Shown: positions 25,778 through 43,075, numbered from the stretch's first letter. The stretch is DNA of 64,000 nucleotides from an uncultured Candidatus Saccharibacteria bacterium (GCA_964411375.1 CAYPKR010000001.1:40227-104226); one strand, 5' to 3'. The notes: generated by a model from the letters alone, not told the origin. A program made the numbers and translations.

Positions 25778-25911
25778 ACTAAGAATGCTCGGCGGTGGAA
25801 ATACCGCGAGGATTCCTGGGAGGAAGGAACTGTGTGTTTGCGTCTGTCTCATGTGAGCAAATGCGTGACTATTATATCACGCATGTACTTCGCTTCTCTC
25901 TGGAAAACTGT

Positions 25912-26253: not shown

Positions 26254-26269
26254 ATTGATGTATTGAAAA

Positions 26270-26665
26270 TTATTCTGTGTCTTTCCGCAAACTGTCCAAG
26301 TAATTTTGGAGAATTAAAGCGGCGGCTGATGCATCGACAAGCGCACCCTTCTCACTCCCCTCTCGACGCGCATGCGCGCTCGAAAGTATCTCACTCCAGA
26401 GAATAACCGGAACATCCAGAAGTTCTTCAAGTGCTTTCTTGAATGCGGCTATCTCTTTCATTACTGGATTTTCGTTCCCCTTAAAATCCCGCGACTCGCC
26501 AAGAATGATTTTTTCAGCCTTCTTCTCAATTACCAGCTTGCCGATTATTCCGAGCGACTCTTTGTTGGTGTCGATAATTGCTTCGGGAAACGCAATAGAG
26601 CCATCTTCATCTGAGATAGCGATGCCGATTCGTTTGGTGCCGTAGTCGATTCCAAGGTAACGCAT
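26270..26665 (-). CDS. ruvX: Holliday-junction resolvase-like protein YqgF/RuvX
   Basis: MRYLGIDYGTKRIGIAISDE matches the RuvX signature. Confidence 0.9.
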   Translation of the reverse strand: MRYLGIDYGTKRIGIAISDEDGSIAFPEAIIDTNKESLGIIGKLVIEKKAEKIILGESRDFKGNENPVMKEIAAFKKALEELLDVPVILWSEILSSAHARREGSEKGALVDASAAALILQNYLDSLRKDTE

Positions 26666-27173
26666 ATCGCAGTATGCCTAGTATTTTGAAATGATTCAAT
26701 TAAAAACGCCAGATGCGCGGCGCAGGCGAAGCCCGAAGCGAGTCGTATGAATAATACGACGAGCGAGGACTGGAGACTGCAACAAAGCAGGTGGCGCTTT
26801 TAATGAATCATCGATGCGTACAAATATGGAATCCAGAGGATTAGTGCGCCCAAAATAAAGGCGGCGGAAAGGAGGAGGGTCGTTTTCAGTATCTTTTTCA
26901 TAGATGATAATCCGAAGAATATCACACTTCACGCAAGAAACCTGTGGAAATGCGCGTTTCAATGGAAATTATGATGGACTTGCTGCAACCCTGATAATTC
27001 CATTGTCTTCTTGTTCACTAAACCCCTGGTTTACTTGGGTTCAAAGTTGCCAATCTGGCGGTGCAGGTGGGTTAAGTGCCCACCAGTGTCAATCACTGTA
27101 AGGGTTTTTGAGCAATTTTTCCACCTCACGTTTTGAGGCACGCGGGTCGGGCTAAGACTTTGAAATGTGACAA

Positions 27174-27210
27174 AAGTGACACCATTTGCACTTCTTTGGC
27201 GTGTCACTTT
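27174..27210 (-). terminator. hairpin AAAGTGACAC...GTGTCACTTT overlapping the stop codon of the NACHT gene
   Basis: 10-bp perfect arms 27174-27183 and 27201-27210. Stop TGA at 27204-27206 lies inside the right arm. Confidence 0.5.
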
Positions 27211-30200
27211 TTGCCTCGCACTCCGGAGCGTCGACGGACAGCGTGCGACGAAGTCTTCTTTTTTGGTCTTTTTGCAGTATTTTTGACAGTCTTGCGCTTT
27301 GGCGCTGTTGGGCTGTTATAGCAATCGAAGGACATGACCGAGACCTTATTGATTTTCTGAAACGCCTCTTGAATCGTCGAGAGATTTTTAGCGTCCGTGT
27401 TCTTAACTACGAGGAAAATGCCATGCGAGGCACCGTACCCTTGCATGTACGCATCGCGCATCGTTACGTACGAGTCGGACTTCTCAATCGTCTCGACCCG
27501 AGGACTTTGAATGTCACTATTGGAGGTTAGCTTAACTTCAATGACGATCGGACCCGTAAAGCCATATCTCACGAGCAGGTCTGTGCGCTTCTCATTAAGG
27601 AGCTGTGCTTCGCGGGTGATCTCAACCTGAAAACCACGTTTGAGGAGAATGTTTTCAATTTGCATCTTGAGAGTCTTTTGAACCAGCTTTTCGTCATCAC
27701 GACGTTCGCCCGGAGACTTTTTCCTGAGAAGAATATCGTATGCACCCTCTCCTTCGATCCAGCGACGAAGGTCAGTCTCCAGCGCATCCTGAACCTGTCG
27801 GAACAAATCTTCGGAGTTGCGGACTTTCTTGTCACTAAATTCACGAGCATCGTTGTACTTTGTGATGGCTTCGGCAATAGTCTGCGGTTTGCCCAAGTAA
27901 CCAAGATACGACTTTCTTAGATGCGCGAGTCGTCCCGCGAACCAATTCACGCCATCTTGTTCGGACACATTCGCAACTGCAGTCTCCAATTGTTGGAGTG
28001 AATCATACGATCGGCCCTCTTTAAGGTTATCGAAGTAGGCGTAGACGACCTCCCACATGTATTGACCGTATGCATGGAATTGTGGACCGCGGGCCCATAT
28101 CTTAAAGGCCTCATTCAACATATCGAGATAGTCTTGCTCGAATCCCGAATATTTGAGTTCCATCAAGGGCTTGGCAAACGTCTTGCTGTGCGAAATCTCG
28201 TCCTCAAAATCTCCGACGCTATGAACGCGTGCGCCATAGACCTGAGTGAATGGACCGGCTCGTTCAACAATTTGCTTGAGACGCCACCGTATCGCATCAG
28301 CATCGGCATGCGACGTAATGAGTAATCCGCTTGCGATATGCGCGAGCTTTTGGTCACCTGCATCCTTGCTGTCTTTATACTTCTCAAACACCTCCTTCAA
28401 AAAAGAAGCATCTGGAGCCAGCGAATCAAATACAGGCAATGCTTCTTCGCGCACATACTTTTCAATCTGCTCTTCCATAATGAGACCCTTGAGTATGGGA
28501 GCGGCTGCCGTGATGTGGTATTGCTTGGCAGCTTCCACAAAACTCTGCGGCATATGACGCCAGAGATCCGAACTCTTGTTCGTGTACACCTCGAATACTC
28601 TCGTCATCTCCTCTGGCTTGATGTCCTTCACGAGGTCGAAGATGGTGCGTAAATCCTCGTTATACGCGAACGGAATGAGGTTAATGATTTGCTGACGATA
28701 CGGTGATGTATCGAACCCAAGCCGTTTTGCGGCAACAAGTGCATCTCTGAAAATATAGATCGCGGATGCAGTCGTGTATGTTTTTGATCCGTCATGTTGT
28801 GCCGTTATTGTAAGATCAAACTTCCCAGGATCCATGAATTTGAAGACCGTGCCCGACAGCAACTCAAATATCCGCTTTTTGTCATCATTCGAGAGTAGCG
28901 GATCGAGCATATCTGCGTGGTCCGTGTAGAAATCAAAGACATTGGTGCTGTATTTGCCTTCTTCAGGCTCAAGCAAAACTCTAAACTCCTGAAGTAAGCC
29001 CTGACCTCGATCGTCTTGTGGATTCGCCGCGGCTTTTGCCTGTCCCTCCTCCCATTTTTGGTAATCATCCGCAAGGAGCGATCGGCAAGCCTCATAGAGT
29101 TCATTCGCGTTCTTCCTCCTCGAGAACTTGATACGCGTCATTACGGTAAACGCTGAGTACTTCTCTCCCGTATTGAGAAGTGCCTGCACGAAGGGTTGCA
29201 CGTCTTCCAGTTTGATCGTACGGGCAAAGAAACTGTGCGCGAAGTAGAGACCGGTTTTTCCGTCCTCGCTTTCCTTAATGCGACGCACCATATCCATGAC
29301 AAAGCTAGGATCACCTTCGCTCAGAAAATCCCAGAGCCCTTGGAGAAAGACCGATTGCTCGGTGTTATACGCAACACTGTGGTGCACCGATTTCACGAGA
29401 ACTCCTTTAGATAGTTCACGAATCTCGTTATCAGCAACCGCCTTGATACGATCAACAATCACATGATCTTTATCTCGGAAGATCCTCGTGTCGTCGAGGA
29501 ACTCGCGTCGGAAGTTTTCATCATCAATAAAGCGCCTCAAGAAAGCCACCACCGACTCGCGCTTTTTGAATTCAAACAAGCCATAGCGTCCGTGGAAATC
29601 GTCCCGCGCTACTGCTTCGAATACGTGCTGGAGCGTTTTCGGATGATCAGGATCGAGCGCAATACATGCCGAGAGGAATGCCTGCGATACCAATTCATCG
29701 CCCTGCGTCTGGGTGAGCACATCAATGACAGAAGGGTCGCCTAAATCTTCCAGCGCCTCCAGCGCGTGGCGTTGGAGCACGCCGTTTTCATCCTTATCTT
29801 GCGCATACGCGATGAGCTTTTCGCGCCAGTATGGTTTATCAACCGATATTTTATTGCGGAGCAAGTACGCGACCACGTAGCAAATGTTGCCGAGCGGCAC
29901 ATATCGAAACGCATCTTTCTGCGACTCAGCCTCTGTTACCCAAACTTTGAGTTGAGACTCTAGCGAAGGGTCGTAAAAATCCGGGAGAGCCTGCGTAATC
30001 TGACCAGATATCCATTGTCGCGTGCGTCGGTGGTATTCAATGACATCCTTAAAGAGGGCTATGCGGAATGCAGCAGGAACATTGCGCGGATCAACACGAC
30101 TGAGGAAGTGAAAGAAATTTTCATCGAGTACCTTGAACTTGTTACCGCGCAACCCTGAAAACTCGACAAACTGCTCAAGCAGATTGGGCTGCATGTCCAC

Positions 30201-31301
30201 GAGGAACGTAAGCGCGTTAAACCATGTGGGATAGATTTCTTTTACATTCGGATCAACGGCGAATGCAAACGCGGCGCGATTCGGGTCTGCGAAGCGCGTA
30301 ATTTCTTTCGCTGCGAGGTATTCTTGAAATTCTGTGTTCTCAAACTCAATCTTGTCGAGATTTTCATGACTCACTTTGAGCAAGGAATACTCATAGAAAA
30401 CATCTATGCCAATGCTCGAGAGTGCGGCGGTTTTTAGATCGGATTTCAGATCATCGAAAAACGTCATAAGCTCATCTTGCGTAATGACATTCGTTTGGTA
30501 GATCTCCATTCCAAGCGCGAGCTTCTCAAGCACGCGCTTGGTGATGGCTCGCTTGTCCTCATTCAGCTTTTTCTCCTCGAGTTCGAGCTTCTTGTAGATG
30601 AAGTGCTCGAACAGCTCATTGCGGGAGACCTTTGCCGCAGCATCCAAACCCTTCACTTTCAAGTAGTCATCGAGATAAAAGAGATATCGCGGAATCTGAA
30701 TCACGAGCATGCGGTGGCTGAACGACATCATTCGGTTGAGAAGTGTGTCGACATCGCGTTCCGCTCGTCCGGCAGAAATAAGGTACTCGCGTATCTGCGA
30801 GCGCGTAAAAGGTGAGATACTTATGAACCGAAATTCAGGAAAAGAATTCGCGTAGCGGCTGACGAAGACCCAGCGTCCCGAAATGAAAAGCTGAAGTTCA
30901 GGATGCGCTTTTGAAATCTCCTCGATTTTTTGTAACACCGCAGGGAACGTGCTCGACTTTACCTCATCGAGCGCGTCGAGTAACAGGGCTTGCGGCTTTT
31001 GCTCTGCGCCAAGAGCGCTATCTATTTGCTGCAGGGCATCATTGTCTCGTAAGCTAACGAGAACAGTGGTCGTGCCTTGAGCTTCCAAATGCTTATGGAT
31101 TTTTTGCAGAAGAAGGGTTTTGCCGATTCCTGGCTCCCCAACAATTAGGCTGCGGTTACCTTGGGCGAGCCCGTCGATGGCGGTTATTTCCTCATCTTCG
31201 AAGATAGCCAGGCCACCGAATTTATCAAAAAACTCCTTCGCTTCGGCGAAGGTGGTATGCACTTTCGTAATGGGCTGGATATAGATGTCTTTGGGGTTCA
31301 T
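27204..31301 (-). CDS. giant NACHT-type STAND P-loop NTPase with C-terminal PD-(D/E)xK-like motif and Lys/Arg-rich tail (candidate antiphage protein)
   Basis: ORF 27204..31367. The likely start is Met 31301 (MNPKDIYIQ), because the first Met abuts the divergent gene. Walker A LIVGEPGIGKTLLL. NACHT-style Walker B ALLLDALDEV. More than 1000 aa of helical-looking sequence. Near the C-terminus KRTDLLVRYGFTGPIVIEVK fits D-x14-E-x-K. It ends KRKTVKNTAKRPKKKTSSHAVRRRSGVRGKK. Confidence 0.8.
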   Translation of the reverse strand: MNPKDIYIQPITKVHTTFAEAKEFFDKFGGLAIFEDEEITAIDGLAQGNRSLIVGEPGIGKTLLLQKIHKHLEAQGTTTVLVSLRDNDALQQIDSALGAEQKPQALLLDALDEVKSSTFPAVLQKIEEISKAHPELQLFISGRWVFVSRYANSFPEFRFISISPFTRSQIREYLISAGRAERDVDTLLNRMMSFSHRMLVIQIPRYLFYLDDYLKVKGLDAAAKVSRNELFEHFIYKKLELEEKKLNEDKRAITKRVLEKLALGMEIYQTNVITQDELMTFFDDLKSDLKTAALSSIGIDVFYEYSLLKVSHENLDKIEFENTEFQEYLAAKEITRFADPNRAAFAFAVDPNVKEIYPTWFNALTFLVDMQPNLLEQFVEFSGLRGNKFKVLDENFFHFLSRVDPRNVPAAFRIALFKDVIEYHRRTRQWISGQITQALPDFYDPSLESQLKVWVTEAESQKDAFRYVPLGNICYVVAYLLRNKISVDKPYWREKLIAYAQDKDENGVLQRHALEALEDLGDPSVIDVLTQTQGDELVSQAFLSACIALDPDHPKTLQHVFEAVARDDFHGRYGLFEFKKRESVVAFLRRFIDDENFRREFLDDTRIFRDKDHVIVDRIKAVADNEIRELSKGVLVKSVHHSVAYNTEQSVFLQGLWDFLSEGDPSFVMDMVRRIKESEDGKTGLYFAHSFFARTIKLEDVQPFVQALLNTGEKYSAFTVMTRIKFSRRKNANELYEACRSLLADDYQKWEEGQAKAAANPQDDRGQGLLQEFRVLLEPEEGKYSTNVFDFYTDHADMLDPLLSNDDKKRIFELLSGTVFKFMDPGKFDLTITAQHDGSKTYTTASAIYIFRDALVAAKRLGFDTSPYRQQIINLIPFAYNEDLRTIFDLVKDIKPEEMTRVFEVYTNKSSDLWRHMPQSFVEAAKQYHITAAAPILKGLIMEEQIEKYVREEALPVFDSLAPDASFLKEVFEKYKDSKDAGDQKLAHIASGLLITSHADADAIRWRLKQIVERAGPFTQVYGARVHSVGDFEDEISHSKTFAKPLMELKYSGFEQDYLDMLNEAFKIWARGPQFHAYGQYMWEVVYAYFDNLKEGRSYDSLQQLETAVANVSEQDGVNWFAGRLAHLRKSYLGYLGKPQTIAEAITKYNDAREFSDKKVRNSEDLFRQVQDALETDLRRWIEGEGAYDILLRKKSPGERRDDEKLVQKTLKMQIENILLKRGFQVEITREAQLLNEKRTDLLVRYGFTGPIVIEVKLTSNSDIQSPRVETIEKSDSYVTMRDAYMQGYGASHGIFLVVKNTDAKNLSTIQEAFQKINKVSVMSFDCYNSPTAPKRKTVKNTAKRPKKKTSSHAVRRRSGVRGKK

Positions 31302-31369
31302 GCAGGTACATTTTCTCACTTTGGACGGTGAGCAGCAAACAAAGGCATATCTTGCTAAAATCGTCATAT

Positions 31370-31999
31370 ATGAGCCAATTCTCCAGACACACCATCGCTG
31401 AATACCTTCCTGAAATTAAGGGCATTTGTGCCTCTGTTGAAGTGGAAATGGCAAGACATGATCTGGACGGTCTCCTCCAGCTGCAACCCCTCCCCGCCAT
31501 TGAGCAGTACGGGCGCTCAAAGATTGTCTACGCCATGATGCTTGTTGGCGAATGGCTTAAGGACACCCCTTTCAGCACGCACTCGACCTATCTTAAGAAA
31601 AACGACAAAGGTGCAAGATGGGCAGACATGCTCAAAATCCTGAACGCCAAAATCCTTGAGTATCAGAATGACGTGCCCGTGATCGTTCTCAATCTATCCC
31701 GAAGCGGACATATCACGCGCACGGTCGACGGTAGTACGTTCGAGCATGATTTTGAAAGCGACGGCTTCAAAAAAGAAATACTTGTTATGCTTCACGAGAA
31801 CGACGGTTATGTGCAAACAAAAGATTTGAAACAACGCACTGGCTCAAAGAGCACTGAATCTGTGGCAAAAACGATTGCAGCTATAAACAACGTACTGAGA
31901 GCAAAACTTCAGCTTCCTGTAAAAGAAAAAGTAATTGGGAGCAAACGTGCTTCTGGGTATCGTCTCAACCCGCTGTACAACATAGTGATCAAAAATTGA
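31370..31999 (+). CDS. winged-helix DNA-binding protein (OmpR/CadC-type C-terminal domain) with unknown N-terminal domain
   Basis: C-terminal SVAKTIAAINNVLRAKLQLPVKEKVIGSKRASGYRLN resembles the trans_reg_C wing (..LR.KL......I.T.RG.GYRL). Divergent from the NACHT gene by about 68 bp. Start could be later (31448). Confidence 0.45.
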   Translation: MSQFSRHTIAEYLPEIKGICASVEVEMARHDLDGLLQLQPLPAIEQYGRSKIVYAMMLVGEWLKDTPFSTHSTYLKKNDKGARWADMLKILNAKILEYQNDVPVIVLNLSRSGHITRTVDGSTFEHDFESDGFKKEILVMLHENDGYVQTKDLKQRTGSKSTESVAKTIAAINNVLRAKLQLPVKEKVIGSKRASGYRLNPLYNIVIKN

Positions 32000-32119
32000 T
32001 ACTTCCCACATCCGGAGTGGAAAAGTGGCTCTATCGTCCCGAAGCTACGGGATTTTTTGCTGATGCCATTCCAGATGCGTTCCATGTAAATATGGTGCCG
32101 CTTGCGCCATTGTTATTAC

Positions 32120-33394
32120 ATGGCTACAAAATTGCGATGGCACACCGACGAACGCAGAGTTAGCGACCTTGTGCCAAATATTAAAAATCCGCGCAAGATG
32201 TCCCCGAAGCAGATTGAGGACTTAAAGCGTTCGCTTAAGAAATTTGACCTCGTCGAGCTACCGGTCGTCGATACAGACAACAAAGTCATCGCGGGACATC
32301 AGCGGCTCATGGTTCTCAAACTCCTTACCCGCGAAAATGATCTCATTCCTGTACGCGTCCCAAATCGCAAACTTACCCAAAAAGAGTACGACCAGTACCT
32401 CCTTGGGAGTAACCGCATCCATGGTGATTGGGACTGGCAGGCGCTTGCGGACAATTTCGATATTGAGACGCTCCTCTCCTCCGGCTTCGACGACATCGAC
32501 ATGGTGCATATTTTTGACGACCTTGAAGTTGAGGATGACGAGTTCGATGTCGAAAAAGAACTCGAGAAAATCAAGAAACCGAAGTCTAAGACCGGCGAGC
32601 TGTATCAACTCGGTAACCACAGAATCATATGTGGCGACAGCACTGACCCCGGAGTTCTGAAAAAGTTGATGGGTGACAAGAAAGCAAGCTCAATTCTTCA
32701 AGACCCACCATACAACATCTCCCTCGACTACAACAAAGGCATCGGCGGCAAGCGCAACTACGGCGGTACAGTTGACGACGCGAAGCCCGACAAGGAGTAC
32801 AAAAAGTTTCTGAAATCGGCTCTTGAGAATGCACTGTCAGTCTTAGAGAAAGACGCACACGTATTCACATACTGCGATCAGAAGTACATCTGGCTCTTGC
32901 AGACCCTCTACGCCGAGCTCGGTATCGCTAACAAGCGCATGTGTTTGTGGGTAAAGAATAATTCCACTCCCACGCCGCAAGTTGCGTTCAACAAGCAGTA
33001 CGAGCCGTGCGTATATGGCACGGTTGGCAAACCGTATCTGAGCGAGAAAGTACTCAATCTCTCGGAAGTGCTCAACAAAGAAATCGGCACGGGCAACCGC
33101 ACACTGGAGGACATCTACGACATGATCGACATTTGGATGGTTAAACGCCTCAACGGCACAAACTATCAGCACCCTACCGAAAAGCCCCCGATGCTCCACG
33201 AGAAAGCCCTGCGCCGTTGCACGAAGCCTGGCAACATCGTGCTGGATTGCTTCGGCGGTTCAGGATCTCTTTTGATTGCATGCGAACAACTTAAGAGAAG
33301 TGCGTACTTGGTCGAACGCGAGCCCATATTCGTTGACTTGGTAATACGTCGCTATGAAAAACTCACTGGCAACAAAGCGAAAAAGCTCAACTAG
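32120..33394 (+). CDS. ParB-like nuclease domain fused to N6/N4 DNA methyltransferase (phage-type)
   Basis: N-terminal sequence pattern resembling ParB-N (NPRKMSPKQIEDLKRSLKKFDLVELPVV). Methyltransferase motifs LQDPPYNIS (motif IV), HPTEKP and DCFGGSGS (motif I). Confidence 0.85.
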   Translation: MATKLRWHTDERRVSDLVPNIKNPRKMSPKQIEDLKRSLKKFDLVELPVVDTDNKVIAGHQRLMVLKLLTRENDLIPVRVPNRKLTQKEYDQYLLGSNRIHGDWDWQALADNFDIETLLSSGFDDIDMVHIFDDLEVEDDEFDVEKELEKIKKPKSKTGELYQLGNHRIICGDSTDPGVLKKLMGDKKASSILQDPPYNISLDYNKGIGGKRNYGGTVDDAKPDKEYKKFLKSALENALSVLEKDAHVFTYCDQKYIWLLQTLYAELGIANKRMCLWVKNNSTPTPQVAFNKQYEPCVYGTVGKPYLSEKVLNLSEVLNKEIGTGNRTLEDIYDMIDIWMVKRLNGTNYQHPTEKPPMLHEKALRRCTKPGNIVLDCFGGSGSLLIACEQLKRSAYLVEREPIFVDLVIRRYEKLTGNKAKKLN

Positions 33395-34118
33395 GTGCTG
33401 GCAGCTTGGCGACCATCGCCTAGTGCAGGGTGACTCCACCGATCCCGAGATCGTGCGGATGGTCATGGGCATCGAGAAAGCGAATCTCATCTGCACTGAC
33501 CCACCATACGGCGTGGCAGTCGCAGAATCAAAACGCAACTTCCGCACGCTCTCAAAAGACAAGAACATCGCCAACGATCACTTGCAGTCTGATGATGAAT
33601 ATCACCAGTTCTCGCGAGCGTGGCTGGAAGCCATCGCTCCGCACCTCGCCAAGAAAAACAGCGTGTACATCTTTAACGCGGACAAAATGGTGTGGTCTTT
33701 GCGCGATGGTATGGTCGATGCGGGATTCAAGGTGGCACAACTTCTCCTCTGGGTGAAGCAACAATCGGTTATCGGACGCTTGGACTATGCCCCGCAGCAC
33801 GAACTCATCGTGTATGGGTGGTTCGGTACGCACCACTTTAGACGCTCTAAAGATAAGTCGGTGTTGTTCTACCCACGTCCGAACAAGTCTAAGCTCCACC
33901 CGACGACAAAGCCGCTCGGGCTAGTACGTCGCCTTATTCTCAACAGCACGAATATCGGTGACGTTGTCTTTGACGGCTTCCTCGGGAGCGGCACCACTCT
34001 CTTGGCATGTGAACAAACGAAACGCCGATGTTTTGGCATTGAACTGGATTCCGAGTACTGCCAGACCATCATCAAACGCTGGGAAAACATGACCGGCAAA
34101 AAAGCAAAACAAATATGA
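33354..34118 (+). CDS. N6/N4 DNA methyltransferase (second, ParB-less)
   Basis: CTDPPYGV, HPTTKP and DGFLGSGTT motifs. Overlaps the upstream gene by 41 nt. Confidence 0.85.
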   Translation: MKNSLATKRKSSTRCWQLGDHRLVQGDSTDPEIVRMVMGIEKANLICTDPPYGVAVAESKRNFRTLSKDKNIANDHLQSDDEYHQFSRAWLEAIAPHLAKKNSVYIFNADKMVWSLRDGMVDAGFKVAQLLLWVKQQSVIGRLDYAPQHELIVYGWFGTHHFRRSKDKSVLFYPRPNKSKLHPTTKPLGLVRRLILNSTNIGDVVFDGFLGSGTTLLACEQTKRRCFGIELDSEYCQTIIKRWENMTGKKAKQI

Positions 34119-34531
34119 AAAAGACCGATCAAACCAAAGAAGCGCTTCTCGAACAGCTACGAAAAACACCTATCGTGCAGATTGCATGCGAGAAGCTCGG
34201 TATCAGCCGCTGGACCTTCTACCGCTGGAAGAAGGAAGATGCTGACTTTGCCAAGAAAGTCGACGAGGCACTTCTGGAAGGATGCCTGCTGGTAAACGAC
34301 CTCGCGGAATCACAGCTCATCTCCGCCATCAAGGATCGCAATATGCACGCGGTCATGGCATGGCTCAAACACCACCATCCTTCGTACAAAACCAGAGTGG
34401 AGATCGAAGGAAAACTTGAGACGGTGCAGGAAATGACCGACGAACAAAAAGAGTTGGTGCAAAAAGCTTTAGAGTTAGCAAATATTCAGCTAAAAGAACA
34501 TGGAAACGATCAGGGACACTGCGACGTTTGA
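34115..34531 (+). CDS. phage terminase small subunit-like HTH protein
   Basis: HTH IVQIACEKLGISRWTFYRWKK, typical of TerS-like HTH_23/terminase_2 proteins. Immediately upstream of TerL. Confidence 0.6.
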   Translation: MKKTDQTKEALLEQLRKTPIVQIACEKLGISRWTFYRWKKEDADFAKKVDEALLEGCLLVNDLAESQLISAIKDRNMHAVMAWLKHHHPSYKTRVEIEGKLETVQEMTDEQKELVQKALELANIQLKEHGNDQGHCDV

Positions 34532-35996
34532 GGCCATTGCGCAGGATCGTCTCGTGCGGCGTACGGTGACGCGCGAGAGTCACCTCATGTTTTTCTACGT
34601 GTATTTCTCCCACTACGTCACGTATCCAATTGCTGAATTTCAGAAGGACATCTTTCGTATCACCGAGGATCAAAGCAACAAACTCGCGGTCATTGTGGCA
34701 TTTCGTGGATCCGGTAAGTCAACCCTCGTTACCTTTTCATATTCCCTCTGGGCCATGCTCGGCGTTCAACAGAAGAAATTCGTACTCATTATTTGCCAAA
34801 CGCAAACCCAAGCCAAGCAACATCTCATTAACCTCAAGCGGGAGCTGGAGAGTAATATGCTGTTGCGTAACGACCTCGGACCCTTTCAGGAAGAGAACGG
34901 TGAATGGGGTGCTTCCGCTTTAGTGTTCCCACAACTGAAGGCTAAGATCATGGCCGTCTCAACTGAGCAGAGTATCCGCGGCCTCCGTCACAACCAGCAC
35001 CGTCCCGACCTCATTATCTGCGACGACCTTGAGGATATGGCGTCAGTAAAAACATATGAGAATCGTCAGAAGATATACAACTGGCTCTGCGGCGAAGTGA
35101 TGCCGCTCGGAGATCGCAGTACTCGGTTTGTAGTGGTGGGCAACCTCCTTCACGAGGACTCGTTGGTCATGCGGCTACGGAGAGACATTGTCGAAGGACA
35201 GCGCAATGGCACTTTCAAGATTTTCCCTCTAATCACCAGTGACGGAGCGATCGCCTGGCCGGGCAAATATCCGACACCGGAGGCTGTTGCCGAGGAAAGG
35301 ATGAAAAGCGGTAATGAGTATGCGTGGCAGCGAGAGTATCTCCTCAACATTATTCCTGATGAGGATCAGGTCATTCAGAAAGAATGGATCCATTACTATG
35401 ATGCCCTGCCCACTCGGCGCGATACCTACCATGGCATCTTTACGGGAGTTGATCTGGCAATTTCTCAAAAAGAAACTGCGGACTATACCGCCATAGTGAG
35501 CGGACTCATTAGCCACGACGAGAATTTCTGCGTGTATATTCTTCCCAACATGGTGAACCGGCGCATGAACTTTCCGGAGACAATCAAACAACTCAAAGAG
35601 ATTAATGCTGCGAACAAGAAAATGTACTCATCGCATATTTTGGTCGAGGAGGTCGGCTATCAAAAGGCGGTAATCGATCAGCTTGCGCATGATTCTCTGA
35701 ATGTCGAAGGCGTCAAAATCAGCACCGATAAGCGCTCGCGTCTTATATCCATCTCCGCCATGATTCAAAGTGGCAAGATAAAGTTCCCTCGGCATGGCGC
35801 GGAAGCTCTCATACGTCAGATTGTCGGCTTCGGAGTTGAGCGACATGACGATCTTGTGGATGCGTTTACACTCCTTGCCCATCATGCTATTCAATTCGAC
35901 CGAGAGGCTCCTCAATTCTTAGTTATAGACCTCACTCCAAACAGATGGGACGATGGGGAGGGTTGGTTTCCGCTGAGTCTCAACACTCGTTTTTAA
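34500..35996 (+). CDS. phage terminase large subunit
   Basis: Walker A VAFRGSGKSTLV. ATPase and C-terminal nuclease-type architecture. DHGAEALIRQIVGF...DDLVDAF resembles the TerL nuclease C-terminus. Confidence 0.85.
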   Translation: METIRDTATFEAIAQDRLVRRTVTRESHLMFFYVYFSHYVTYPIAEFQKDIFRITEDQSNKLAVIVAFRGSGKSTLVTFSYSLWAMLGVQQKKFVLIICQTQTQAKQHLINLKRELESNMLLRNDLGPFQEENGEWGASALVFPQLKAKIMAVSTEQSIRGLRHNQHRPDLIICDDLEDMASVKTYENRQKIYNWLCGEVMPLGDRSTRFVVVGNLLHEDSLVMRLRRDIVEGQRNGTFKIFPLITSDGAIAWPGKYPTPEAVAEERMKSGNEYAWQREYLLNIIPDEDQVIQKEWIHYYDALPTRRDTYHGIFTGVDLAISQKETADYTAIVSGLISHDENFCVYILPNMVNRRMNFPETIKQLKEINAANKKMYSSHILVEEVGYQKAVIDQLAHDSLNVEGVKISTDKRSRLISISAMIQSGKIKFPRHGAEALIRQIVGFGVERHDDLVDAFTLLAHHAIQFDREAPQFLVIDLTPNRWDDGEGWFPLSLNTRF

Positions 35997-36045
35997 GTTA
36001 CCAACTCCGCATATATAGGCCTACGTGTCATCCCTTGAGGAATGA
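35995..36045 (+). repeat. imperfect direct repeat copy A (AAGTTACCAACTCC...TAGGCCTACGTGTCATCCCTTGAGG), starting in the TerL stop codon
   Basis: 14/14 identity plus about 20/26 in the second block with copy B at 43009-43075. A third 10-mer GGTTACCAAC occurs at 37138. Confidence 0.6.
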
Positions 36046-36186
36046 AGTCTGTGGACGTTGGAAATCTGAGGTACGTGCAGAAACTCTTGGGTATCTGTAT
36101 ACAGCTATTGCGAAAGATCGAGAAAGAATCAGCAAAGCCCAAGAACCAGCCATCGCTCCCGTTTCGAAATAGTCGAAAACGAAAAC

Positions 36187-37065
36187 CTAGAAGCCGGTAG
36201 CAGCCGTCGTAATATCTGTGCCGTATCCGAGATCCTTGAATACCATGGTGTAGCCGCTTGAGCCTGTGGGTATCTCAAAGCCAAGGCTGCCTGTGACGGT
36301 TGCATGAGGCTGAAGCGTGAACGTTGGCATTTTCGCATCGGTGAGCACCATGGTGTATGTGGCTCCGGCAGCGTCTTTGAGGTAGAAGAAGAATTCACTG
36401 CACTGTGTTTCTCCACCATCGAGCGCATGACACGTGAGAGGTTTGTCGCCATTGTTGGTGATTGAGACATCGACACGAACTCTCTCGTGTCCTTCTTGAG
36501 GAGTCGAGCCATACTTTTCAGTGTATGGACGTTTGTACCCAGTTACCTTGAGAGAAATGTTCTCGAAGTTCTTTACCTGCGAGATAACGTTGGCGATACT
36601 CGAGCGGAAACACCAGCTGGTGCCAGATTTCTCGAGTGTCATGAGTTGAGTTTCGCTTTTACCGTCAGAGGTATTTTCAACGAGCTGAACCGATGCACCA
36701 TTGTTTTCTTCCAGAACACTCTTGATTTCAAAGTTGGTAAGACGCGTTGCACCCCATATGTTGGTGAGAGCTTTTACATATTCAGTCTTGGTTGCACCCG
36801 TCCTGTCTTGCGGACAGACGAGGTCGTACATCTTGGCGAAATCGCGCTGCTGCGTGTACCGCTCTACCTTGGTTGCGAAGGCAGAAGCGGATGACTGTTC
36901 ACTGTCGGTCAGCTCGCCATCTTGCACCTCTCTGGCAGCAACTTCAGAGTTAGTGGTATCGGTAACTTGATCAGTACGTGAGGCGCTATTGGACCACCAA
37001 TACACACCTCCGCCAAGAACCATAATTGCAACAATTACTGCTGCTATCCAATGGGCTTTATCCAT
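36187..37065 (-). CDS. membrane-anchored DUF4352-like protein
   Basis: N-terminal TM (WIAAVIVAIMVLGGGVYWW), then Ser/Thr/Glu-rich linker, then a beta-rich C-terminal domain (VRVDVSITNNGDKPL). Confidence 0.55.
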   Translation of the reverse strand: MDKAHWIAAVIVAIMVLGGGVYWWSNSASRTDQVTDTTNSEVAAREVQDGELTDSEQSSASAFATKVERYTQQRDFAKMYDLVCPQDRTGATKTEYVKALTNIWGATRLTNFEIKSVLEENNGASVQLVENTSDGKSETQLMTLEKSGTSWCFRSSIANVISQVKNFENISLKVTGYKRPYTEKYGSTPQEGHERVRVDVSITNNGDKPLTCHALDGGETQCSEFFFYLKDAAGATYTMVLTDAKMPTFTLQPHATVTGSLGFEIPTGSSGYTMVFKDLGYGTDITTAATGF

Positions 37066-37229
37066 AGTTTAAAGGGTTTTTATTGACTAATAACGGACCC
37101 TAGTGTTCCTAGCTTAGTTTCGGAGAGTTGCGAAGGGGGTTACCAACAGCGCCCTTTTGAGGCGCAATTTGAGCATAACATAAATATCTAAAGTTTGGAT
37201 ATTCAGTTCTTGGATAGACGCTTAATGGT

Positions 37230-37448
37230 ATGGGAAAGTCTATCCATACCAAGGAGTACAAAATATTTGTTGAGCGTTTGAGAAAGGCACGACTTGAAGC
37301 AGGTCTTACGCAGGTAGAAGCCGCAAAGAAATTAGGTCGCCCTCAATCTCATATCTCCAACGTTGAGACCGGACAGCAACGGGTAGATATCGTGGAGCTT
37401 AAACGGTTCGCGAACCTCTACGGAAAGAGCGTCAGCTATTTCCTCTAA
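37230..37448 (+). CDS. XRE-family HTH transcriptional regulator
   Basis: LRKARLEAGLTQVEAAKKLGRPQSHISNVETGQQ matches HTH_3. Confidence 0.8.
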   Translation: MGKSIHTKEYKIFVERLRKARLEAGLTQVEAAKKLGRPQSHISNVETGQQRVDIVELKRFANLYGKSVSYFL

Positions 37449-37469
37449 ACAACCGCCCCTCTAAGGGGC

Positions 37470-38000
37470 CTAGGCCTCTTTGATTGAAAGCCGTGGCAAT
37501 GCACTAAGCGCACGGATGCTCTCAAATACCGCAACAAGAGCGGTTGTGTACAACACATCGCCAACAAGCATATTTCTTAAAAATGGAAGTCCCAGTTCAT
37601 ACGAGTATAGAAGTCCAGAAATGGACTTCTCATACCATGGAGAGAACGCCCACACCGCACCGTTGGTAATTAAGAAGAAGATAAGTGAGGCTCCGATTAT
37701 TGATAATCCGACGGGCAATAAAGTTCGATATCTTGCAGCAACAAAACTAAGAAGACCAATCAAGACAAATGATCCGTACACTGAGAACAATATTTTCCAA
37801 TCGTAGAATCCGATGAGCACATCAGAGAGAAGAAGCATGAGTATTGGCAGTAGAATCGCCCATTTCCTGCCGAGGTACAAACTCCCAGTAAATGCTATTG
37901 CTGTGATCGGCGTCATATTCGGCGCATGAGGTAAAAGTCGCACGACAATACCGAAGAGAATAAGGATGCATGTTGTTATGATGATATTGTTCTTATTCAT
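37470..38000 (-). CDS. integral membrane protein, possibly ECF-type S component
   Basis: 176 aa, 5-6 TM. Adjacent to DUF4430 and a B12 adenosyltransferase. Confidence 0.4.
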   Translation of the reverse strand: MNKNNIIITTCILILFGIVVRLLPHAPNMTPITAIAFTGSLYLGRKWAILLPILMLLLSDVLIGFYDWKILFSVYGSFVLIGLLSFVAARYRTLLPVGLSIIGASLIFFLITNGAVWAFSPWYEKSISGLLYSYELGLPFLRNMLVGDVLYTTALVAVFESIRALSALPRLSIKEA

Positions 38001-38007
38001 AATTTGA

Positions 38008-38451
38008 CTAGAACTCTGATTTATCGAAATACCATTCGATTGCGTCTCCGCCTTTGACCTGCAATTTGTCCGCCCCGACTTGCGGCATTACTCCGTTCAC
38101 TCTGTACTGCCAATACTCATCATTCACCCCATTCGTTTTATTGCCGATGCTTTCGACAAGTGTTCCGAGCCCGGAATACTCTTTTGTTATGAGTCGTACT
38201 TCTTCTTGCTGAGTATCGAGTTGTTGTAGTATCTCAAGCACAGTTTTAGGAGAAGAAAACTGGACGCTCTTATCAACATAGAGCCCATCAATCGTTACGG
38301 TAACGGTTTGTGTTTGCGTCTGCGTCTGTGAAGATCCTTGTTCTGGCCCCTTGGCAATCTCAATACGGTCTATGGTTGCAGAAATCCCAAAAAGAAGCGC
38401 TGCAACAATAGCTCCTACCCCTACTATTTGCCAAATTGTTTTCTTGCTCAT
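38008..38451 (-). CDS. DUF4430-domain protein (B12-associated)
   Basis: N-terminal TM plus a C-terminal pattern resembling DUF4430 (EYWQYRVNGVMPQVGADKLQVKGGDAIEWYF). Confidence 0.55.
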   Translation of the reverse strand: MSKKTIWQIVGVGAIVAALLFGISATIDRIEIAKGPEQGSSQTQTQTQTVTVTIDGLYVDKSVQFSSPKTVLEILQQLDTQQEEVRLITKEYSGLGTLVESIGNKTNGVNDEYWQYRVNGVMPQVGADKLQVKGGDAIEWYFDKSEF

Positions 38452-38464
38452 AATTTTATAGATA

Positions 38465-38998
38465 CTAATAAGATGGCGATGCCTCTTTTATTTCTTCTTT
38501 TGCTGCCGCATACCGTGCAAGTGTGTACAGAAGGCTTGAGAGACGATTTAGGTATGCGAGCGATTCGCGGGACACCTTTTGTTTTGTAGCCAATGCAATC
38601 ACGGACCGCTCTGCACGTCGCGTAACTGTTCGGGCATAATCAAGAAAGGCCGATATCGCTGTTGCGCCCGGAATCACAAAAGCATGCGGATTGCCAATAA
38701 TGGTTTCAATGTGATCGATAACATTCTCAAGAGCTCCTACACGCACTTTATCAATTTGCTTGTCTGATCCGGCAAGCTCCGCTTGGATGATAAAAAGTGC
38801 TTCCTGCGCATCTCGAATCTCCTTCTGGAAAGATATCTCGCCAGTTGTTCCAGCCGCGAACAGCCTGCATATGCCCAAAAGGGAGTTAAGTTCATCGAGC
38901 GTACCGAGGGCGTCATACACGAGACTGTTCTTTGGAAGTCGTTTTTTGGTTCCAAAGAGTCCTGACGCTCCATTGTCTCCTTTGCGAGTGTACAGCAT
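38465..38998 (-). CDS. ATP:cob(I)alamin adenosyltransferase, PduO type
   Basis: MLYTRKGDNGASGLFGTKKRLPKNSLVYDALGTLDELNS matches the PduO/MMAB N-terminal signature. Confidence 0.85.
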   Translation of the reverse strand: MLYTRKGDNGASGLFGTKKRLPKNSLVYDALGTLDELNSLLGICRLFAAGTTGEISFQKEIRDAQEALFIIQAELAGSDKQIDKVRVGALENVIDHIETIIGNPHAFVIPGATAISAFLDYARTVTRRAERSVIALATKQKVSRESLAYLNRLSSLLYTLARYAAAKEEIKEASPSY

Positions 38999-39003
38999 GT
39001 TGT

Positions 39004-41340
39004 TTAATGCGCCGCAACGGCTTCAGACACTTCAATTGGTAGTGTGATGTCGATCTCGCATGTGCCACCAGCACAAGCAAGTTCGCGCTTTTGTTCCGTC
39101 TCGTCGGCATGTTCATATACAAGCAATTTCGAGTAATCAACGGTGGGTAATTTTGCTGCCATCTCGTCGTGTTGCTTTTTAGTAATAGTCTCGTATGGTG
39201 CAAGACGGTAAATGTGGTCAAATCGCGGAAGGAAGGAAAGTCCGCCAATGATGTCCCAATTCTTTTGTATCCAATCAACGACGCCGATCCACTCATCTTC
39301 ACCCACGGATATTGTCGCGGAAGGGTTGTGTTCTGTGTAATTAAGTTTTACCGTTTTCCAATATTCCAGTTGCTCAAGCGCAGAGAAGTCATCCTTAAAT
39401 TTGGCATCCCCGGGAGACTCAATTGGGAATTCTAGAACGAACGTCGTTGCGGTCTCTTCTGTCTGTCCAACTTCGGGGTGGTATGGAATACCTTGGTCTT
39501 TCAGCATTTTGAACAAAGAGTCGGTCGCCGATATGCGTACGCGGCGAATGTAGTATTTTGCGTGGCGCGGGTGGATGCCGGAAGAGCAATTGAATGTCTG
39601 TGAGACGGTGCCCGAAGGCTTTACGGCAGTAACCGAAAGAGAAGGTTTAATCCCAAAACGTTGAGCATATACTACGTTAGTTTTGACAGCCATATCACGC
39701 ATGGCTCGCATGGTCTCTGGATTGCGTGCGGCTTCAGAATCCCATTGACCTGTTACGGAAACGCCCAAAAGACGCTCCTCCTCACAATGCTTCGTCCAAT
39801 CTTTAGAGATGTAGTTAAAGCGGGATAATGAGGATTGATACGTTCCAAGGAGTGACGCCAAGCGCGCCTTTCGCACTAGACTCTCGTGAGTATCGTTTGC
39901 ACGAGCAATGATTTCTGAGAGATTGCAGAATTGTTTCGATTGCAGGATAATCTCGCCGCACGGGTTTGTACCAATGGGACCTTGCACCACGCCGCCTTCG
40001 TCGATAAATCCAACACTCTTAAAGTATTTTTCTCGCCGCTTTGGCAGGGTGTTTATAAGTGATCCACGATTAAAGATACCTCGCTCTCCGGAACCGCTCT
40101 TCATGAGAGCTACCCACTCCTCCATAAGCTCGTTGCTCGTTGGTCTGGTTCCATACACGGCAGAATTATTGGCGACGGAGCGATGAGGCTCGGTAAGGAA
40201 AAACTGGCCCTTTTTCGCGTCACGCATGTCTGCATCATCCAAGTCAGAGAGGCTAATCATGGCAGTTCGACGTACGCCCCCCGACACCACACATTCGCCG
40301 ATCTTGCAGATAATGTCGTGGACATCTATCGAGCGTAGCCGCCTACCTTGCCGTTTCAATATCTTTTCTCGTGCAAACGCAAGGAGCGACCGAAGCGGTT
40401 CTGGACCAGATGCCTTGCCTCCCATGGTTTTAAGTCGTGCACCTGCAGGACGGACGAGGGAAAAATCAAATTCGATATCCTTTCCTGCGTACCATGTCTT
40501 GAGTCCTAGAGTTAATGCGTCACACCAGCCCTCCTTCGAGTCTGCCACGACGTGAGCTGGTAATTTTTTCTGGATTTGCTTTTGTATCTGCGGCAGTTGT
40601 TCAATATTCTGGCTTTCAACCGCGAACCCCACGCCACATCCTTGCATAGACAGGTACATGATCTCCGCGAAATCCCCTAAAGCCGTTGGCGCGATAAACG
40701 TGCAGTTATACGCACAGGTATTACAGCGTCGTGCAGGTTCGCCTGCAAACTGCATAAGACGCATCGATGGCATAACTTCTTGCTTCAAAACTGCCTCCCG
40801 CACCTCTGCGTATTCTCCCTCTGAAAGTTTCTCCCCAATATTTTCGCGCATAAATGCCATGTATCGGTCAACTGTTTCGAGCCATGTCTCGCGGCGTTTT
40901 TCAGTGTCAATCCAACGGGCATAGGTACGGAGATAGACAAACTCGCCAAGAGGGTTCCCCTCAAAATATTTCTTGCTCTCGACAGTGAGAGCGCGAACAT
41001 GGTCAGGAACCTCACCGAACTCAGATCGTTTCTCCGCTCGTTCCGCTCGGTACAGGATGTATGCCTTAGCAGATTTAAGAAAGCCCAAAAGCATCAGTCC
41101 TGTCTCCACTTCATCCTGCACCTCCTCAACAGTTGGGGTAAAGTGCTCATCTGCAAGTCTCTTTGCGTCGAGTCTTTTTTCAACTGCCCGAGCAACTGTC
41201 TCAGCAGCACTTTCTTCAAACTCGCCAACCGATTTCATTGCCTTGCCAACCGCAATTACAATCTTTCCTCTTTCAAAGGGAACGGTAGCGCCGTTGCGTT
41301 TTATGATGGTAGTAAGTTTGGGAGAAGTGGATTGCGACAT
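39004..41340 (-). CDS. nrdJ: ribonucleotide reductase, class II (adenosylcobalamin-dependent) with N-terminal ATP-cone
   Basis: ATP-cone VIKRNGATVPFERGKIVIAVGKA. Active-site TNPCGEIILQSKQFCNLSEI. C-terminal CxxC (CAGGTCEID). 778 aa. Confidence 0.85.
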   Translation of the reverse strand: MSQSTSPKLTTIIKRNGATVPFERGKIVIAVGKAMKSVGEFEESAAETVARAVEKRLDAKRLADEHFTPTVEEVQDEVETGLMLLGFLKSAKAYILYRAERAEKRSEFGEVPDHVRALTVESKKYFEGNPLGEFVYLRTYARWIDTEKRRETWLETVDRYMAFMRENIGEKLSEGEYAEVREAVLKQEVMPSMRLMQFAGEPARRCNTCAYNCTFIAPTALGDFAEIMYLSMQGCGVGFAVESQNIEQLPQIQKQIQKKLPAHVVADSKEGWCDALTLGLKTWYAGKDIEFDFSLVRPAGARLKTMGGKASGPEPLRSLLAFAREKILKRQGRRLRSIDVHDIICKIGECVVSGGVRRTAMISLSDLDDADMRDAKKGQFFLTEPHRSVANNSAVYGTRPTSNELMEEWVALMKSGSGERGIFNRGSLINTLPKRREKYFKSVGFIDEGGVVQGPIGTNPCGEIILQSKQFCNLSEIIARANDTHESLVRKARLASLLGTYQSSLSRFNYISKDWTKHCEEERLLGVSVTGQWDSEAARNPETMRAMRDMAVKTNVVYAQRFGIKPSLSVTAVKPSGTVSQTFNCSSGIHPRHAKYYIRRVRISATDSLFKMLKDQGIPYHPEVGQTEETATTFVLEFPIESPGDAKFKDDFSALEQLEYWKTVKLNYTEHNPSATISVGEDEWIGVVDWIQKNWDIIGGLSFLPRFDHIYRLAPYETITKKQHDEMAAKLPTVDYSKLLVYEHADETEQKRELACAGGTCEIDITLPIEVSEAVAAH

Positions 41341-41397
41341 ACAGATAGATGCGTTATATTGATAATGGTCTATGCATTTTAATATAGATGACCATCT

Positions 41398-41769
41398 ATG
41401 AGTAAGAAAAAACTGGGGAAAAGAGTCGGCGGAAAGAATAGCGACACGAAAAAAGATGAGCGTACATACCCTCGGCCTACATGGGTGCCCAAAACCGTAT
41501 CAGGCGAGGAGGAATTGTGCCCAGATTGCTTCAAAGTCGTCGGGGAAAGGAGCCGCTACAATCTTGTGTGCATGCTCGGCAAGGCCAAAGAAGGCATGAC
41601 TGTGACTGAACTGACTGAAAAAATGAACCTGCGCCAGCCTACCATTACGCACCACCTTCAGACGCTGCACTCCGTTGATGCCGTTGAAATCGAGCCGCGG
41701 GGGCGGGAGCGAATCTATAAGCTCAACCGGGACGCACACTGCTTTGAAGAGTGTAAAATTCCTTATTAA
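41398..41769 (+). CDS. ArsR/SmtB-family transcriptional regulator
   Basis: ELTEKMNLRQPTITHHLQTLHSVDAVEIEPRGRERIYKL matches the ArsR HTH. Upstream CPDC pair. Confidence 0.75.
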   Translation: MSKKKLGKRVGGKNSDTKKDERTYPRPTWVPKTVSGEEELCPDCFKVVGERSRYNLVCMLGKAKEGMTVTELTEKMNLRQPTITHHLQTLHSVDAVEIEPRGRERIYKLNRDAHCFEECKIPY

Positions 41770-41774
41770 GGTCT

Positions 41775-42995: not shown

Positions 42996-43008
42996 GGAAT
43001 CAAGGCTA

Positions 43009-43075
43009 AAGTTACCAACTCCAGGGGTCTCGGGACGCTCTGGACTCCTAGGGCGGTCTGCGTCATTCCTTGTGT
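43009..43075 (+). repeat. imperfect direct repeat copy B (AAGTTACCAACTCC...TAGGGCGGTCTGCGTCATTCCTTGTG), 62 bp upstream of the serine recombinase
   Basis: See copy A at 35995-36045. Contains a 26-nt insertion relative to copy A. Confidence 0.6.

Follow-up and report, generated by a model that had tools for sequence, protein, structure and literature searches.

A conserved methyltransferase-terminase operon in Patescibacteria, possible core of phage-satellite-like integrative islands

The window analysed here, a 64,000-nt stretch of the genome of an uncultured Candidatus Saccharibacteria bacterium (GCA_964411375.1, CAYPKR010000001.1:40227-104226), contains an operon in which one or two DNA methyltransferase (methylase) genes, two in this case, are followed by the genes for the small (TerS) and large (TerL) subunits of a phage-type terminase. 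We consider it about an even bet (probability of roughly 0.5) that this operon is the conserved core of phage-satellite-like integrative islands that carry their own terminase and methylases and no capsid genes. The genes are intact and under purifying selection, the TerL proteins of the islands form one clade, and the operon recurs in a conserved architecture within an insertion that is flanked by a direct repeat and carries variable cassettes. The island family is restricted to Patescibacteria (the Candidate Phyla Radiation, CPR). Related loci are designated below by the letter L and a number, and the coordinates of the main features are collected in Table 1.

Gene identities and integrity of the operon

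The four genes lie on the same strand and overlap one another, as an initial annotation of the window had described, with the coordinates given there apart from the start of the first gene. As listed, this open reading frame (ORF) opens with a TTG at position 32102 and specifies 430 amino acids (aa); the homologues all align from the ATG at 32120, and the true product is therefore 424, not 430, aa in length. Both overlaps in that description, an ATGA at 34115-34118 and 32 nt shared by the TerS and TerL genes (34500-34531), can be read directly from the sequence. The N-terminal part of the first product (residues 14-159) matches ParB-like PHROGs (phrog_620, 3e-21), and the second methylase is a paralogue of the first (31% identity). 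DPPY and FxGxG motifs are present in both enzymes, and both match the MTase_II models of PADLOC.

TerS is a small helix-turn-helix (HTH) protein whose gene is located directly 5' of that for TerL, and TerL combines an N-terminal additional-strand catalytic-glutamate (ASCE) ATPase with a C-terminal RNase H-like nuclease containing acidic residues, as do the small and large terminase subunits of Caudoviricetes, respectively. The profile check that had been proposed for TerL confirmed its identity as a terminase (phrog_38, 3.5e-81; Terminase_6C), and it is of the Terminase_6/T7 gp19-like type, with remote PDB matches to T7 gp19 and to a TerL chain of 8dgc. The Walker A (FRGSGKST) and Walker B (DLIICDD-ED) motifs and the nuclease residues D318, E383, D451, and D454 are invariant among 23 diverse homologues. 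Genes for portal, capsid, tail, or lysis proteins are absent from the whole 64-kb window, in agreement with the earlier remark that no portal, capsid, or tail genes follow the operon. A repeat search gives nothing at position 35995, where TerL had been said to end in a repeat.

Distribution, selection and gene order

Homologues of TerL number more than 3830; the 120 best show 55-93% identity and originate nearly all from Parcubacteria/Paceibacteria-type metagenome-assembled genomes (MAGs). In GTDB, scanned with one genome per species, the operon was identified in at least 119 species-representative Patescibacteria genomes (TerL identity, 50-93%). The CPR groups with an island TerL are Paceibacteria, Zambryski-, Moran-, Staskawicz-, Kaiser-, Taylor-, Nomura-, Andersen-, Buchanan-, Gracili-, and Peribacteria; the TerLs of cultured phages are at most 28% identical to that of the window. 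Between the window and its four closest loci, synonymous sites are saturated and dN is 0.05-0.2, and the dN/dS ratio is 0.02-0.08 for the regulator gene preceding the operon, both methylases, and TerL, i.e. 0.03-0.05 for the ParB-methyltransferase, 0.05-0.08 for the second methyltransferase, and 0.024 for TerL.

For a survey of the architecture, ORFs were called in all fetched loci and their products were clustered, with up to 10 kb inspected on each side of each locus. The stereotyped order starts with at least one minus-strand gene, this part often ending with a gene for a LexA/S24-type repressor (32 loci), and continues with a plus-strand gene whose product has 120-330 aa and belongs to one of several unrelated families. 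The gene for the ParB-methylase is located directly upstream of TerS/TerL in 114 of 120 loci, the second methylase is optional and occurs in roughly one-third of the loci, and TerS constitutes a single cluster that is always encoded directly 5' of TerL (93 loci). TerL is followed by 0-7 variable genes, the first of which often lies on the minus strand and specifies a small protein of the membrane or zinc-ribbon type, and then by the gene for a large serine recombinase. This recombinase belongs to one tight family and is encoded downstream of TerL on the same strand in 70 of 130 loci, directly adjacent to it in 24. Of the 44 loci for which 9 kb or more are available on each side, 39 contain the recombinase, the left-end block of ~160 nt described below, or both.

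A decaying prophage remnant without current function, as the initial annotation had suggested, would account for phage-type genes that lack structural genes and have a serine integrase nearby, and IMG/VR classes 37 related contigs as viral. We regard this explanation as very unlikely, because the same reduced gene set is found in at least 119 species with all TerL catalytic residues kept, the dN/dS values remain at 0.02-0.08 with saturated dS, and the island TerLs form one clade rather than scattered, independent decay products. Nor does the locus have the composition of a prophage, since portal, capsid, tail, and lysis genes contiguous with the terminase are absent from the window and none were seen in the inspected flanks of the 119 island-type TerL genes.

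The missing head and tail genes might instead be located elsewhere in the same small genome, the operon then being the packaging module of a split, gene transfer agent (GTA)-like or prophage-like system. Both terminase subunits are complete and conserved, although such an enzyme has no use in the absence of a procapsid, and the DNA inspected comprised the window and the flanks defined above, all of which would fit such a module. It is nevertheless improbable in our estimation: no structural gene was found in the 64 kb, and the inspected flanks of the 119 island-type TerL genes showed neither portal nor capsid genes; the operon moves with the recombinase and its location differs between genomes, unlike a chromosomal GTA; and only some species carry the island, which is absent at this locus from the closest relative.

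Several unusual arrangements were noticed among the relatives. Two island-type TerL genes are arranged in tandem in L028 (1235-7590) and L083 (5016-11491); the first copy is ~47% identical to the TerL of the window, and the second has its own regulator, methylase, and TerS genes ahead of it. Two contigs of MAG SO_2017_GW1_93, L025 and L031, contain diverged copies (68-88% DNA identity) of an island of ~14 kb that encodes a type I restriction-modification (R-M) system, an HTH_17 protein, the regulator, ParB-methylase, TerS, TerL, the recombinase, and a NucS-like protein. The metagenome contigs L217 and L173 carry compact variants without TerL, in which the block is followed by methyltransferase, TerS, and serine recombinase genes.

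Boundaries and insertion of the island

In the window, the island extends from approximately 27056 to approximately 44472. The closest available relative, L258 (RuvX 85% identical), is collinear with the window on the left from PilN/PilM/RuvX to a small ORF ending at 26932 and on the right from the tRNA-Ser(UGA) gene at 44521, through the genes for PIF1, RuvA, Mur ligase, and an LTD protein, to that for a SpoU methylase. Between these parts, L258 contains 1.85 kb of other genes and no block, compared with 17.6 kb (26932-44521) in the window. Comparison with relatives had been suggested as a check on the operon, and it is not universal at this locus; the label of a satellite-like module agrees with its position within a recombinase-bounded island that the closest relative does not have.

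The ends of the island are marked by a direct repeat (left copy, TTTTGAGGCACGCGGGTC; right copy, TTTTTAGGCACTCGGGTC) that matches at 16 of 18 positions, a value reached by 0 of 2000 shuffles. The right copy lies 47 nt ahead of the 3' end of the tRNA-Ser(UGA) gene (44519-44606, minus strand), where homology to L258 resumes, and locus-specific equivalents of the repeat are present in L091 and L071, the other loci whose right junction is fixed by a tRNA gene. Tested over all loci, the repeat gave only a weakly positive result; in a targeted 16-mer test (at least 14/16 matches), own-locus matches amounted to 12.5% and cross-locus matches to 2.9%, an excess that derives partly from second blocks. 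tRNA genes were rejected as a general target, as one follows the recombinase gene in only 6 of 64 loci.

The flanks differ between genomes. DNA similarity to L020 (TerL identity, 90%) is confined to positions 27160-36900 of the window, the flanks being unrelated, and L010, L011, and L012 share with the window a piece of ~157 bp (27056-27212) and the segment 31353-37449; the blastn similarity to L010 and L012 stops at 37448/37449, at the end of the gene for an XRE-type regulator. With a recombinase gene at one end, an insertion relative to L258, and defined ends, the island thus has the sequence features of an element mobilized by a large serine recombinase. The recombinase gene, probably starting with the ATG at 43079, and the left-end block had both been overlooked in the initial annotation, as had the affiliation of the organism with the Patescibacteria; unrelated cargo was considered there to begin after TerL. 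Cargo is indeed found there, but the genes up to the recombinase belong to the same inserted island: the segment 37470-42995 is absent at this locus in L258, and on the basis of this comparison and of the flanking repeat the genes for B12/ribonucleotide reductase functions and for ArsR and multicopper oxidase lie inside the insertion. The PIF1 helicase gene (44689-46386) is outside the island and is kept in the island-free L258.

Different small inserts are located on each side of the same tRNA-Ser gene in L258 (reverse complement, 3861-5709 and 5794-6932), with genes for proteins of 392 and 78 aa on one side and for a GDSL lipase and a 126-aa protein on the other. The neighbourhood of tRNA-Ser is thus a hotspot of variation.

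Phage origin of the terminase

An alignment-based scan of IMG/VR yielded 43 loci, 37 of which have the island architecture. Three IMG/VR loci (L123-L125) encode a TerL with 38-43% identity to that of the window, and the genes that come immediately after it specify portal, protease, major head, and tail proteins. When a neighbour-joining tree was rooted on distant TerLs, the 119 from the islands formed a monophyletic group, with the phage TerLs of L123-L125 outside it. This topology indicates that the island terminase is a distinct lineage sharing an ancestor with the terminase of genuine phages, and the operon was rightly called phage-derived, the island clade being sister to portal-linked phage TerLs. 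The phages that carry the sister TerL probably infect CPR bacteria.

Although the IMG/VR contigs of the island type (L089-L122) are predicted to be viral, structural genes are missing from the stretches fetched, and the prediction may be due to the TerL gene.

Variable cassettes and regulatory genes

Between shared flanks, 4.1 kb of the window are occupied by a gene for a STAND/NACHT-like NTPase, which is also present in L020, whereas L010, L011, and L012 carry a TIR/DUF2188/LexA cassette in this place. In the nearest relatives, the same flanks enclose TIR/PDC-M50, CBASS-type E2, 2TM, or reverse-transcriptase cassettes instead of the NTPase. Block-adjacent cassettes elsewhere likewise consist of known or candidate defence components according to PADLOC (CBASS-type E2, 2TM effectors, PDC-M50A/B with TIR, and DRT-type reverse transcriptases), and type I R-M genes are also frequent in the island loci. 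A recurrent minus-strand operon encodes LexA/S24, DUF2188, PDC-M50A, TIR (PDC-M50B/ThsB-like), and a CBASS-type E2-like protein; it is flanked by the block and the terminase operon in ~8-10 loci (e.g. L001:4240-6815 and L055:4608-5926).

The initial annotation had raised the alternative that the two methyltransferases provide modification in a restriction-like system, with the adjacent NTPase-nuclease as its other arm. The NTPase gene is divergently oriented next to the operon, and the C-terminus of its product has a D...E-x-K motif with a putative role in nuclease activity. This arrangement is extremely unlikely to reflect a functional pair, as the NTPase accompanies the operon in only 2 of ~130 loci (the window and L020), gives way to unrelated cassettes in L010, L011, and L012, where the flanks are identical, and has no nuclease domain by Pfam, PADLOC, or PDB sequence search, whereas 114 of 120 loci retain the methylases together with TerS/TerL. 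Present in only two loci, the NTPase cannot be the obligate partner of the methylases, which have no conserved endonuclease partner of the kind that characterizes a type II R-M system.

Avs-type STAND sensors recognize phage terminases. The NTPase of the window is encoded near the TerL gene, and no similarity to Avs-type sensors was detected; its assignment as a known Avs protein or as a nuclease was rejected, PADLOC, Pfam nuclease families, and PDB sequences giving no support.

The defence genes in the neighbourhood also bear on another explanation, namely that the operon is a domesticated anti-phage module, in which TerS/TerL and self-protecting methylases act in the cell on infecting phages and transfer is not the purpose. 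Such a module might cut or mis-package phage concatemers or occupy phage procapsids. The operon lies amid defence genes (PDC-M50/TIR, CBASS E2, 2TM, DRT reverse transcriptases, type I R-M, and the STAND NTPase), it is under strong purifying selection, rare 'naked' copies without recombinase or block keep intact genes (L005/L006 and L052), and the obligatory pairing of a methylase with a nuclease recalls the logic of R-M. In opposition to this, neither TerS nor TerL has a PADLOC match, no terminase-based defence system was found in literature searches, and the tight link to the recombinase, the terminal block, and variable insertion sites points to a function at the level of the element. Satellites also interfere with helper packaging, so that this explanation and the satellite interpretation do not exclude each other, and on balance we consider a domesticated anti-phage module unlikely.

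The regulator gene directly preceding the operon specifies a predicted DNA-binding protein; the best PDB folds for its model are the DNA-binding domains of ArlR, CovR, and PhoB, weakly matched (E about 0.03). Its homologues carry HTH_11 or Trans_reg_C domains, and this position is filled in most loci, by several unrelated families. Identification of the regulator as a plasmid-type Rep protein was rejected, the fold search giving only an OmpR/PhoB-like winged helix, and that weakly. The hairpin between the regulator gene and the operon is a possible control point, e.g. for antitermination.

The conserved left-end block

The block at the left end of the island contains AAAGTGACAAAAGTGACAC at 27164-27182, a GTGACAC/GTGTCAC inverted pair (GTKACA palindrome), and a T-run. 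It was detected by nhmmer in 43 of 131 TerL loci, always on the plus strand and 2.6-9 kb upstream of TerL, where it abuts the 3' end of the minus-strand cassette, and in 99 of the 126 metagenome contigs bearing the 18-mer. Two conserved sub-segments of the block co-vary as direct, not complementary, repeats, and this pattern points to a protein-binding DNA site. RNAalifold found no structure on either strand in 30 block sequences. An RNA gene was rejected (no Rfam match at E up to 10; single-sequence fold z-scores of only -1.2 and -1.5), as was the 3' end of the recombinase gene, into which the block falls only in L070, where the ORF reads into it. The motif in L132 was discarded, as it is part of a coding sequence in a phage-like contig that is unrelated.

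The block is bipartite: 29 matches comprise only the left half and 17 only the right half. In several loci (Table 1), the left half is separated from the right half by an insert of 0.1-1 kb, the break being located just past the direct-repeat sub-segment, which suggests that insertion occurs where this segment ends. The block looks like a recombination site that takes cassette insertions. Arrays of blocks are also present, in which the copies have the same orientation, are 0.4-4 kb apart, and are each followed by minus-strand genes, a layout that recalls integron attC sites and the composite islands of the staphylococcal cassette chromosome (SCC). In L138, L159, L211, L227, and L229, minimal units were observed, with the block 110-160 nt upstream of the serine recombinase gene and no cargo between them, and in L070, L256, L230, and L203 the block lies directly downstream of the recombinase gene. 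In L070 (3637-5413), a serine recombinase ORF of 551 aa continues into a full block, entering its left part, and a complete island with no downstream recombinase of its own comes after this block; the arrangement may be tandem or circularly permuted.

A broader interpretation is possible, and we advance it only tentatively: the bipartite block may be the recombination site of a serine-recombinase platform that acquires and reshuffles defence cassettes and that would package itself into the capsids of helper phages by means of the methylase-TerS-TerL operon. This would explain the block arrays, the half-blocks split by inserts, and the swapping of cassettes between identical flanks. CPR bacteria are largely devoid of CRISPR systems. 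If the interpretation is true, the platform would be a transducible, self-methylating array of defence cassettes that spreads immunity among these ultra-small bacteria, analogous to an integron or to an SCC composite island and unrelated to both.

Features of the window

The window is part of a Patescibacteria (CPR) chromosome. Besides the island, it contains scattered single tRNA genes and small housekeeping genes, and the best relatives of its proteins are found in Parcubacteria/Paceibacteria MAGs. A Logan contig from run SRR12487045 (L259) is 100% identical to positions 23166-36665 of the window, and the gene call for the STAND NTPase in this identical contig is also 1365 aa. The RuvA ORF of the window (47808-48848) specifies 346 aa, compared with 187 aa in L258, with DNA similarity only from 47981; its N-terminal 160 aa are probably an artefact of ORF calling.

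Table 1. Features of the island and the window, and loci with multiple or divided blocks
Feature	Position	Strand	Description
Left-end block (~160 nt)	27056-27212	+	nhmmer E=5.7e-24; single copy in the window
Direct repeat, left copy, TTTTGAGGCACGCGGGTC	27131-27148	+	Inside the block, at the end of its left half
STAND/NACHT-like P-loop NTPase with HEAT repeats	27204-31301	-	1365 aa; N-terminal Pfam NPHP3_N, NACHT, AAA_16
DNA-binding regulator	31370-31999	+	209 aa; C-terminal OmpR/PhoB-type winged helix; AlphaFold2 mean pLDDT 87
Terminator-like hairpin with T-run	32036-32053		Between regulator and methylase-terminase operon
ParB-N + beta-class (DPPY) N6/N4 DNA methyltransferase	32120-33394	+	424 aa; Pfam N6_N4_Mtase 1.7e-28
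Second DPPY-type DNA methyltransferase	33354-34118	+	254 aa; N6_N4_Mtase 4.4e-34
TerS (HTH, terminase small subunit)	34115-34531	+	138 aa; PHROGs 4044/309/4102, 3e-10 to 7e-8
TerL (terminase large subunit)	34500-35996	+	498 aa; ATPase and nuclease domains intact; phrog_38 3.5e-81, Terminase_6C
Membrane-anchored DUF4352 protein	36187-37065	-	Pfam; convergent with TerL; kept in L020, L010, L001
XRE-type HTH regulator	37230-37448	+	72 aa; PHROG transcription regulators
Island cargo, minus strand	within 37470-42995	-	DUF6580, DUF4430, cob(I)alamin adenosyltransferase, class II (B12-dependent) ribonucleotide reductase (Pfam)
Island cargo, plus strand	within 37470-42995	+	ArsR regulator, multicopper oxidase (Pfam)
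Large serine recombinase	43070-44410	+	Resolvase + Recombinase + Zn-ribbon; phrog_95 5.7e-64; catalytic YARKST motif
Terminator hairpin	44415-44449		Past the recombinase gene
Direct repeat, right copy, TTTTTAGGCACTCGGGTC	44455-44472	+	45 nt past the recombinase stop
Housekeeping genes of the window			ArgRS, SHMT, ThyA, BipA, L19, RuvX, RuvA/B/C, PolA, TyrRS, PilB/M/N, Mur ligase
Block arrays in related loci	L197:136-2695; L220:1634-4543; L239:6979-9500; L181:691-1376; L026:4287-6145; L249:8-4172; L203:6195-9070; L062		
Half-block loci	L197:2195-2289 and 2636-2695; L140; L219; L253; L191; L246; L231; L193		

Comparison with known mobile elements

Full-text searches of the literature gave no description of a methylase-TerS-TerL-serine recombinase island in CPR. 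The order methylase-TerS-TerL and its translational coupling resemble the start of the late operon of temperate siphoviruses, but everything from the portal gene onward is missing in every island member, whereas L123-L125 have portal, protease, and capsid genes after TerL. The gene set of the island is that of a temperate siphovirus reduced to regulation, anti-restriction, packaging, and integration.

The staphylococcal SCC elements (SCCmec and composite islands) offer another comparison. Their large serine recombinases, CcrAB, move a cargo island into one site, with short direct repeats on its flanks, and cassettes without a recombinase pile up in tandem, with repeated att-like sequences between them; terminase and phage packaging genes are not part of SCC elements. 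The islands described here share with them the serine recombinase, the flanking repeats, and the arrays of blocks (L197, L220, L239, and L181). They differ in their repeat unit, which is a bipartite block of ~160 nt rather than a sequence of 15-18 bp inside a housekeeping gene, in possessing a terminase and phage packaging genes, and in taxon and cargo.

Published satellite families (10.1101/2022.09.14.508007; PMC10803314) were used for a third comparison. In common with phage-inducible chromosomal islands (PICIs), including the Staphylococcus aureus pathogenicity islands (SaPIs), the element of the window is an integrated island with an integrase, repressor or other regulators, packaging genes of phage origin, and defence or accessory cargo, and it has no tail or lysis genes. 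The integrase is of the serine type, and regulation is represented by the winged-helix and XRE proteins of the window and by LexA/S24 and HTH_17 proteins in its relatives. A TerS gene is present, redirection of packaging by TerS being a feature of PICIs, and the TerL-less variants in L217 and L173 look like the TerS-only strategy of these islands. The core components of PICIs include a primase-replicase module and a capsid-morphogenesis gene (10.1101/2022.09.14.508007; PMC10803314), both of which the island lacks; it further differs from PICIs in its large serine recombinase in place of the usual tyrosine-type integrase, in its one or two obligatory DNA methyltransferases, and in its host phylum, Patescibacteria. 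Capsid-forming PICIs (cf-PICIs) and the island both encode a full TerL, but the capsid, portal, and protease genes of cf-PICIs are absent from the island. PICMIs, the phage-inducible chromosomal minimalist islands, are small islands of Vibrionaceae that lack genes for capsid remodelling, rely on helper particles entirely, and bear cargo directed against phages; terS and all other packaging genes are missing from them, and the roles of their three core proteins are excision and replication (10.1101/2022.09.14.508007; PMC10803314). The absence of capsid-remodelling genes and the anti-phage cargo are shared with the island, which otherwise has the reverse set, i.e. packaging and methylation genes and no recognizable replication gene.

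Proposed mode of action and implications

As the core of a satellite-like island, the operon could act as follows. Phage infection, or the SOS response where relatives carry a LexA/S24 repressor at a divergent promoter, would be the trigger, and the recombinase would then excise the island. The methylases would modify island DNA, TerS would recognize a site on it, and TerL would cut this DNA and pump it into the procapsids of a helper phage, which would come from the lineage of the sister, portal-linked TerLs (L123-L125-related). In this way, the island would ferry its defence and metal/nucleotide cargo.

Several points weigh against this interpretation. Excision, induction, dependence on a helper, and packaging into capsids or virions are all steps that we infer, and the survey of structural genes spans 64 kb here and at most 10 kb per side elsewhere. 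No primase-replicase domain was found in the island genes of the window or in the recurrent gene clusters of 130 loci, and the island has no recognizable replication initiator or primase, in which it differs from PICIs, P4, PICI-like elements (PLEs), and PICMIs alike. No recombination directionality factor was identified, a small HTH_17 gene being present in only ~10 loci, and no terminal overlap indicative of a circular or excised form was found among 131 loci. The flanking repeat is seen in only three loci, those with a clear tRNA junction, and when repeats shared by the left and right ends were sought across loci in general, the result was not significant. In pairwise comparison, TerL distances correlate with those of the recombinase (Mantel r=0.48, p=0.001), but host phylogeny could account for part of this relationship. 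The putative TerS proteins of the sister phages show no similarity to the island TerS. Finally, the operons of L005/L006 and L052, which have no recombinase, block, or LexA gene within 10 kb, would fit a function at the level of the cell.

If the satellite interpretation is true, the islands would constitute the first satellite-type family for the phylum, a widespread one that occurs in at least 119 species representatives and has thousands of TerL homologues in metagenomes. Their gene set is unusually minimal in that it comprises a full terminase and methylases and lacks capsid and replication genes, and the sister TerL clade points to the putative helper phages. Virus-detection pipelines based on TerL will misclassify such islands, 37 island-type loci having come from IMG/VR. 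The recombinase may yield a new pair of serine recombinase and attachment (att) site, the latter conserved and easily recognized, and the block, the recombinase, and the island TerL clade provide markers with which defence and metal-resistance genes could be followed as they are transferred horizontally in communities of groundwater and sediment.

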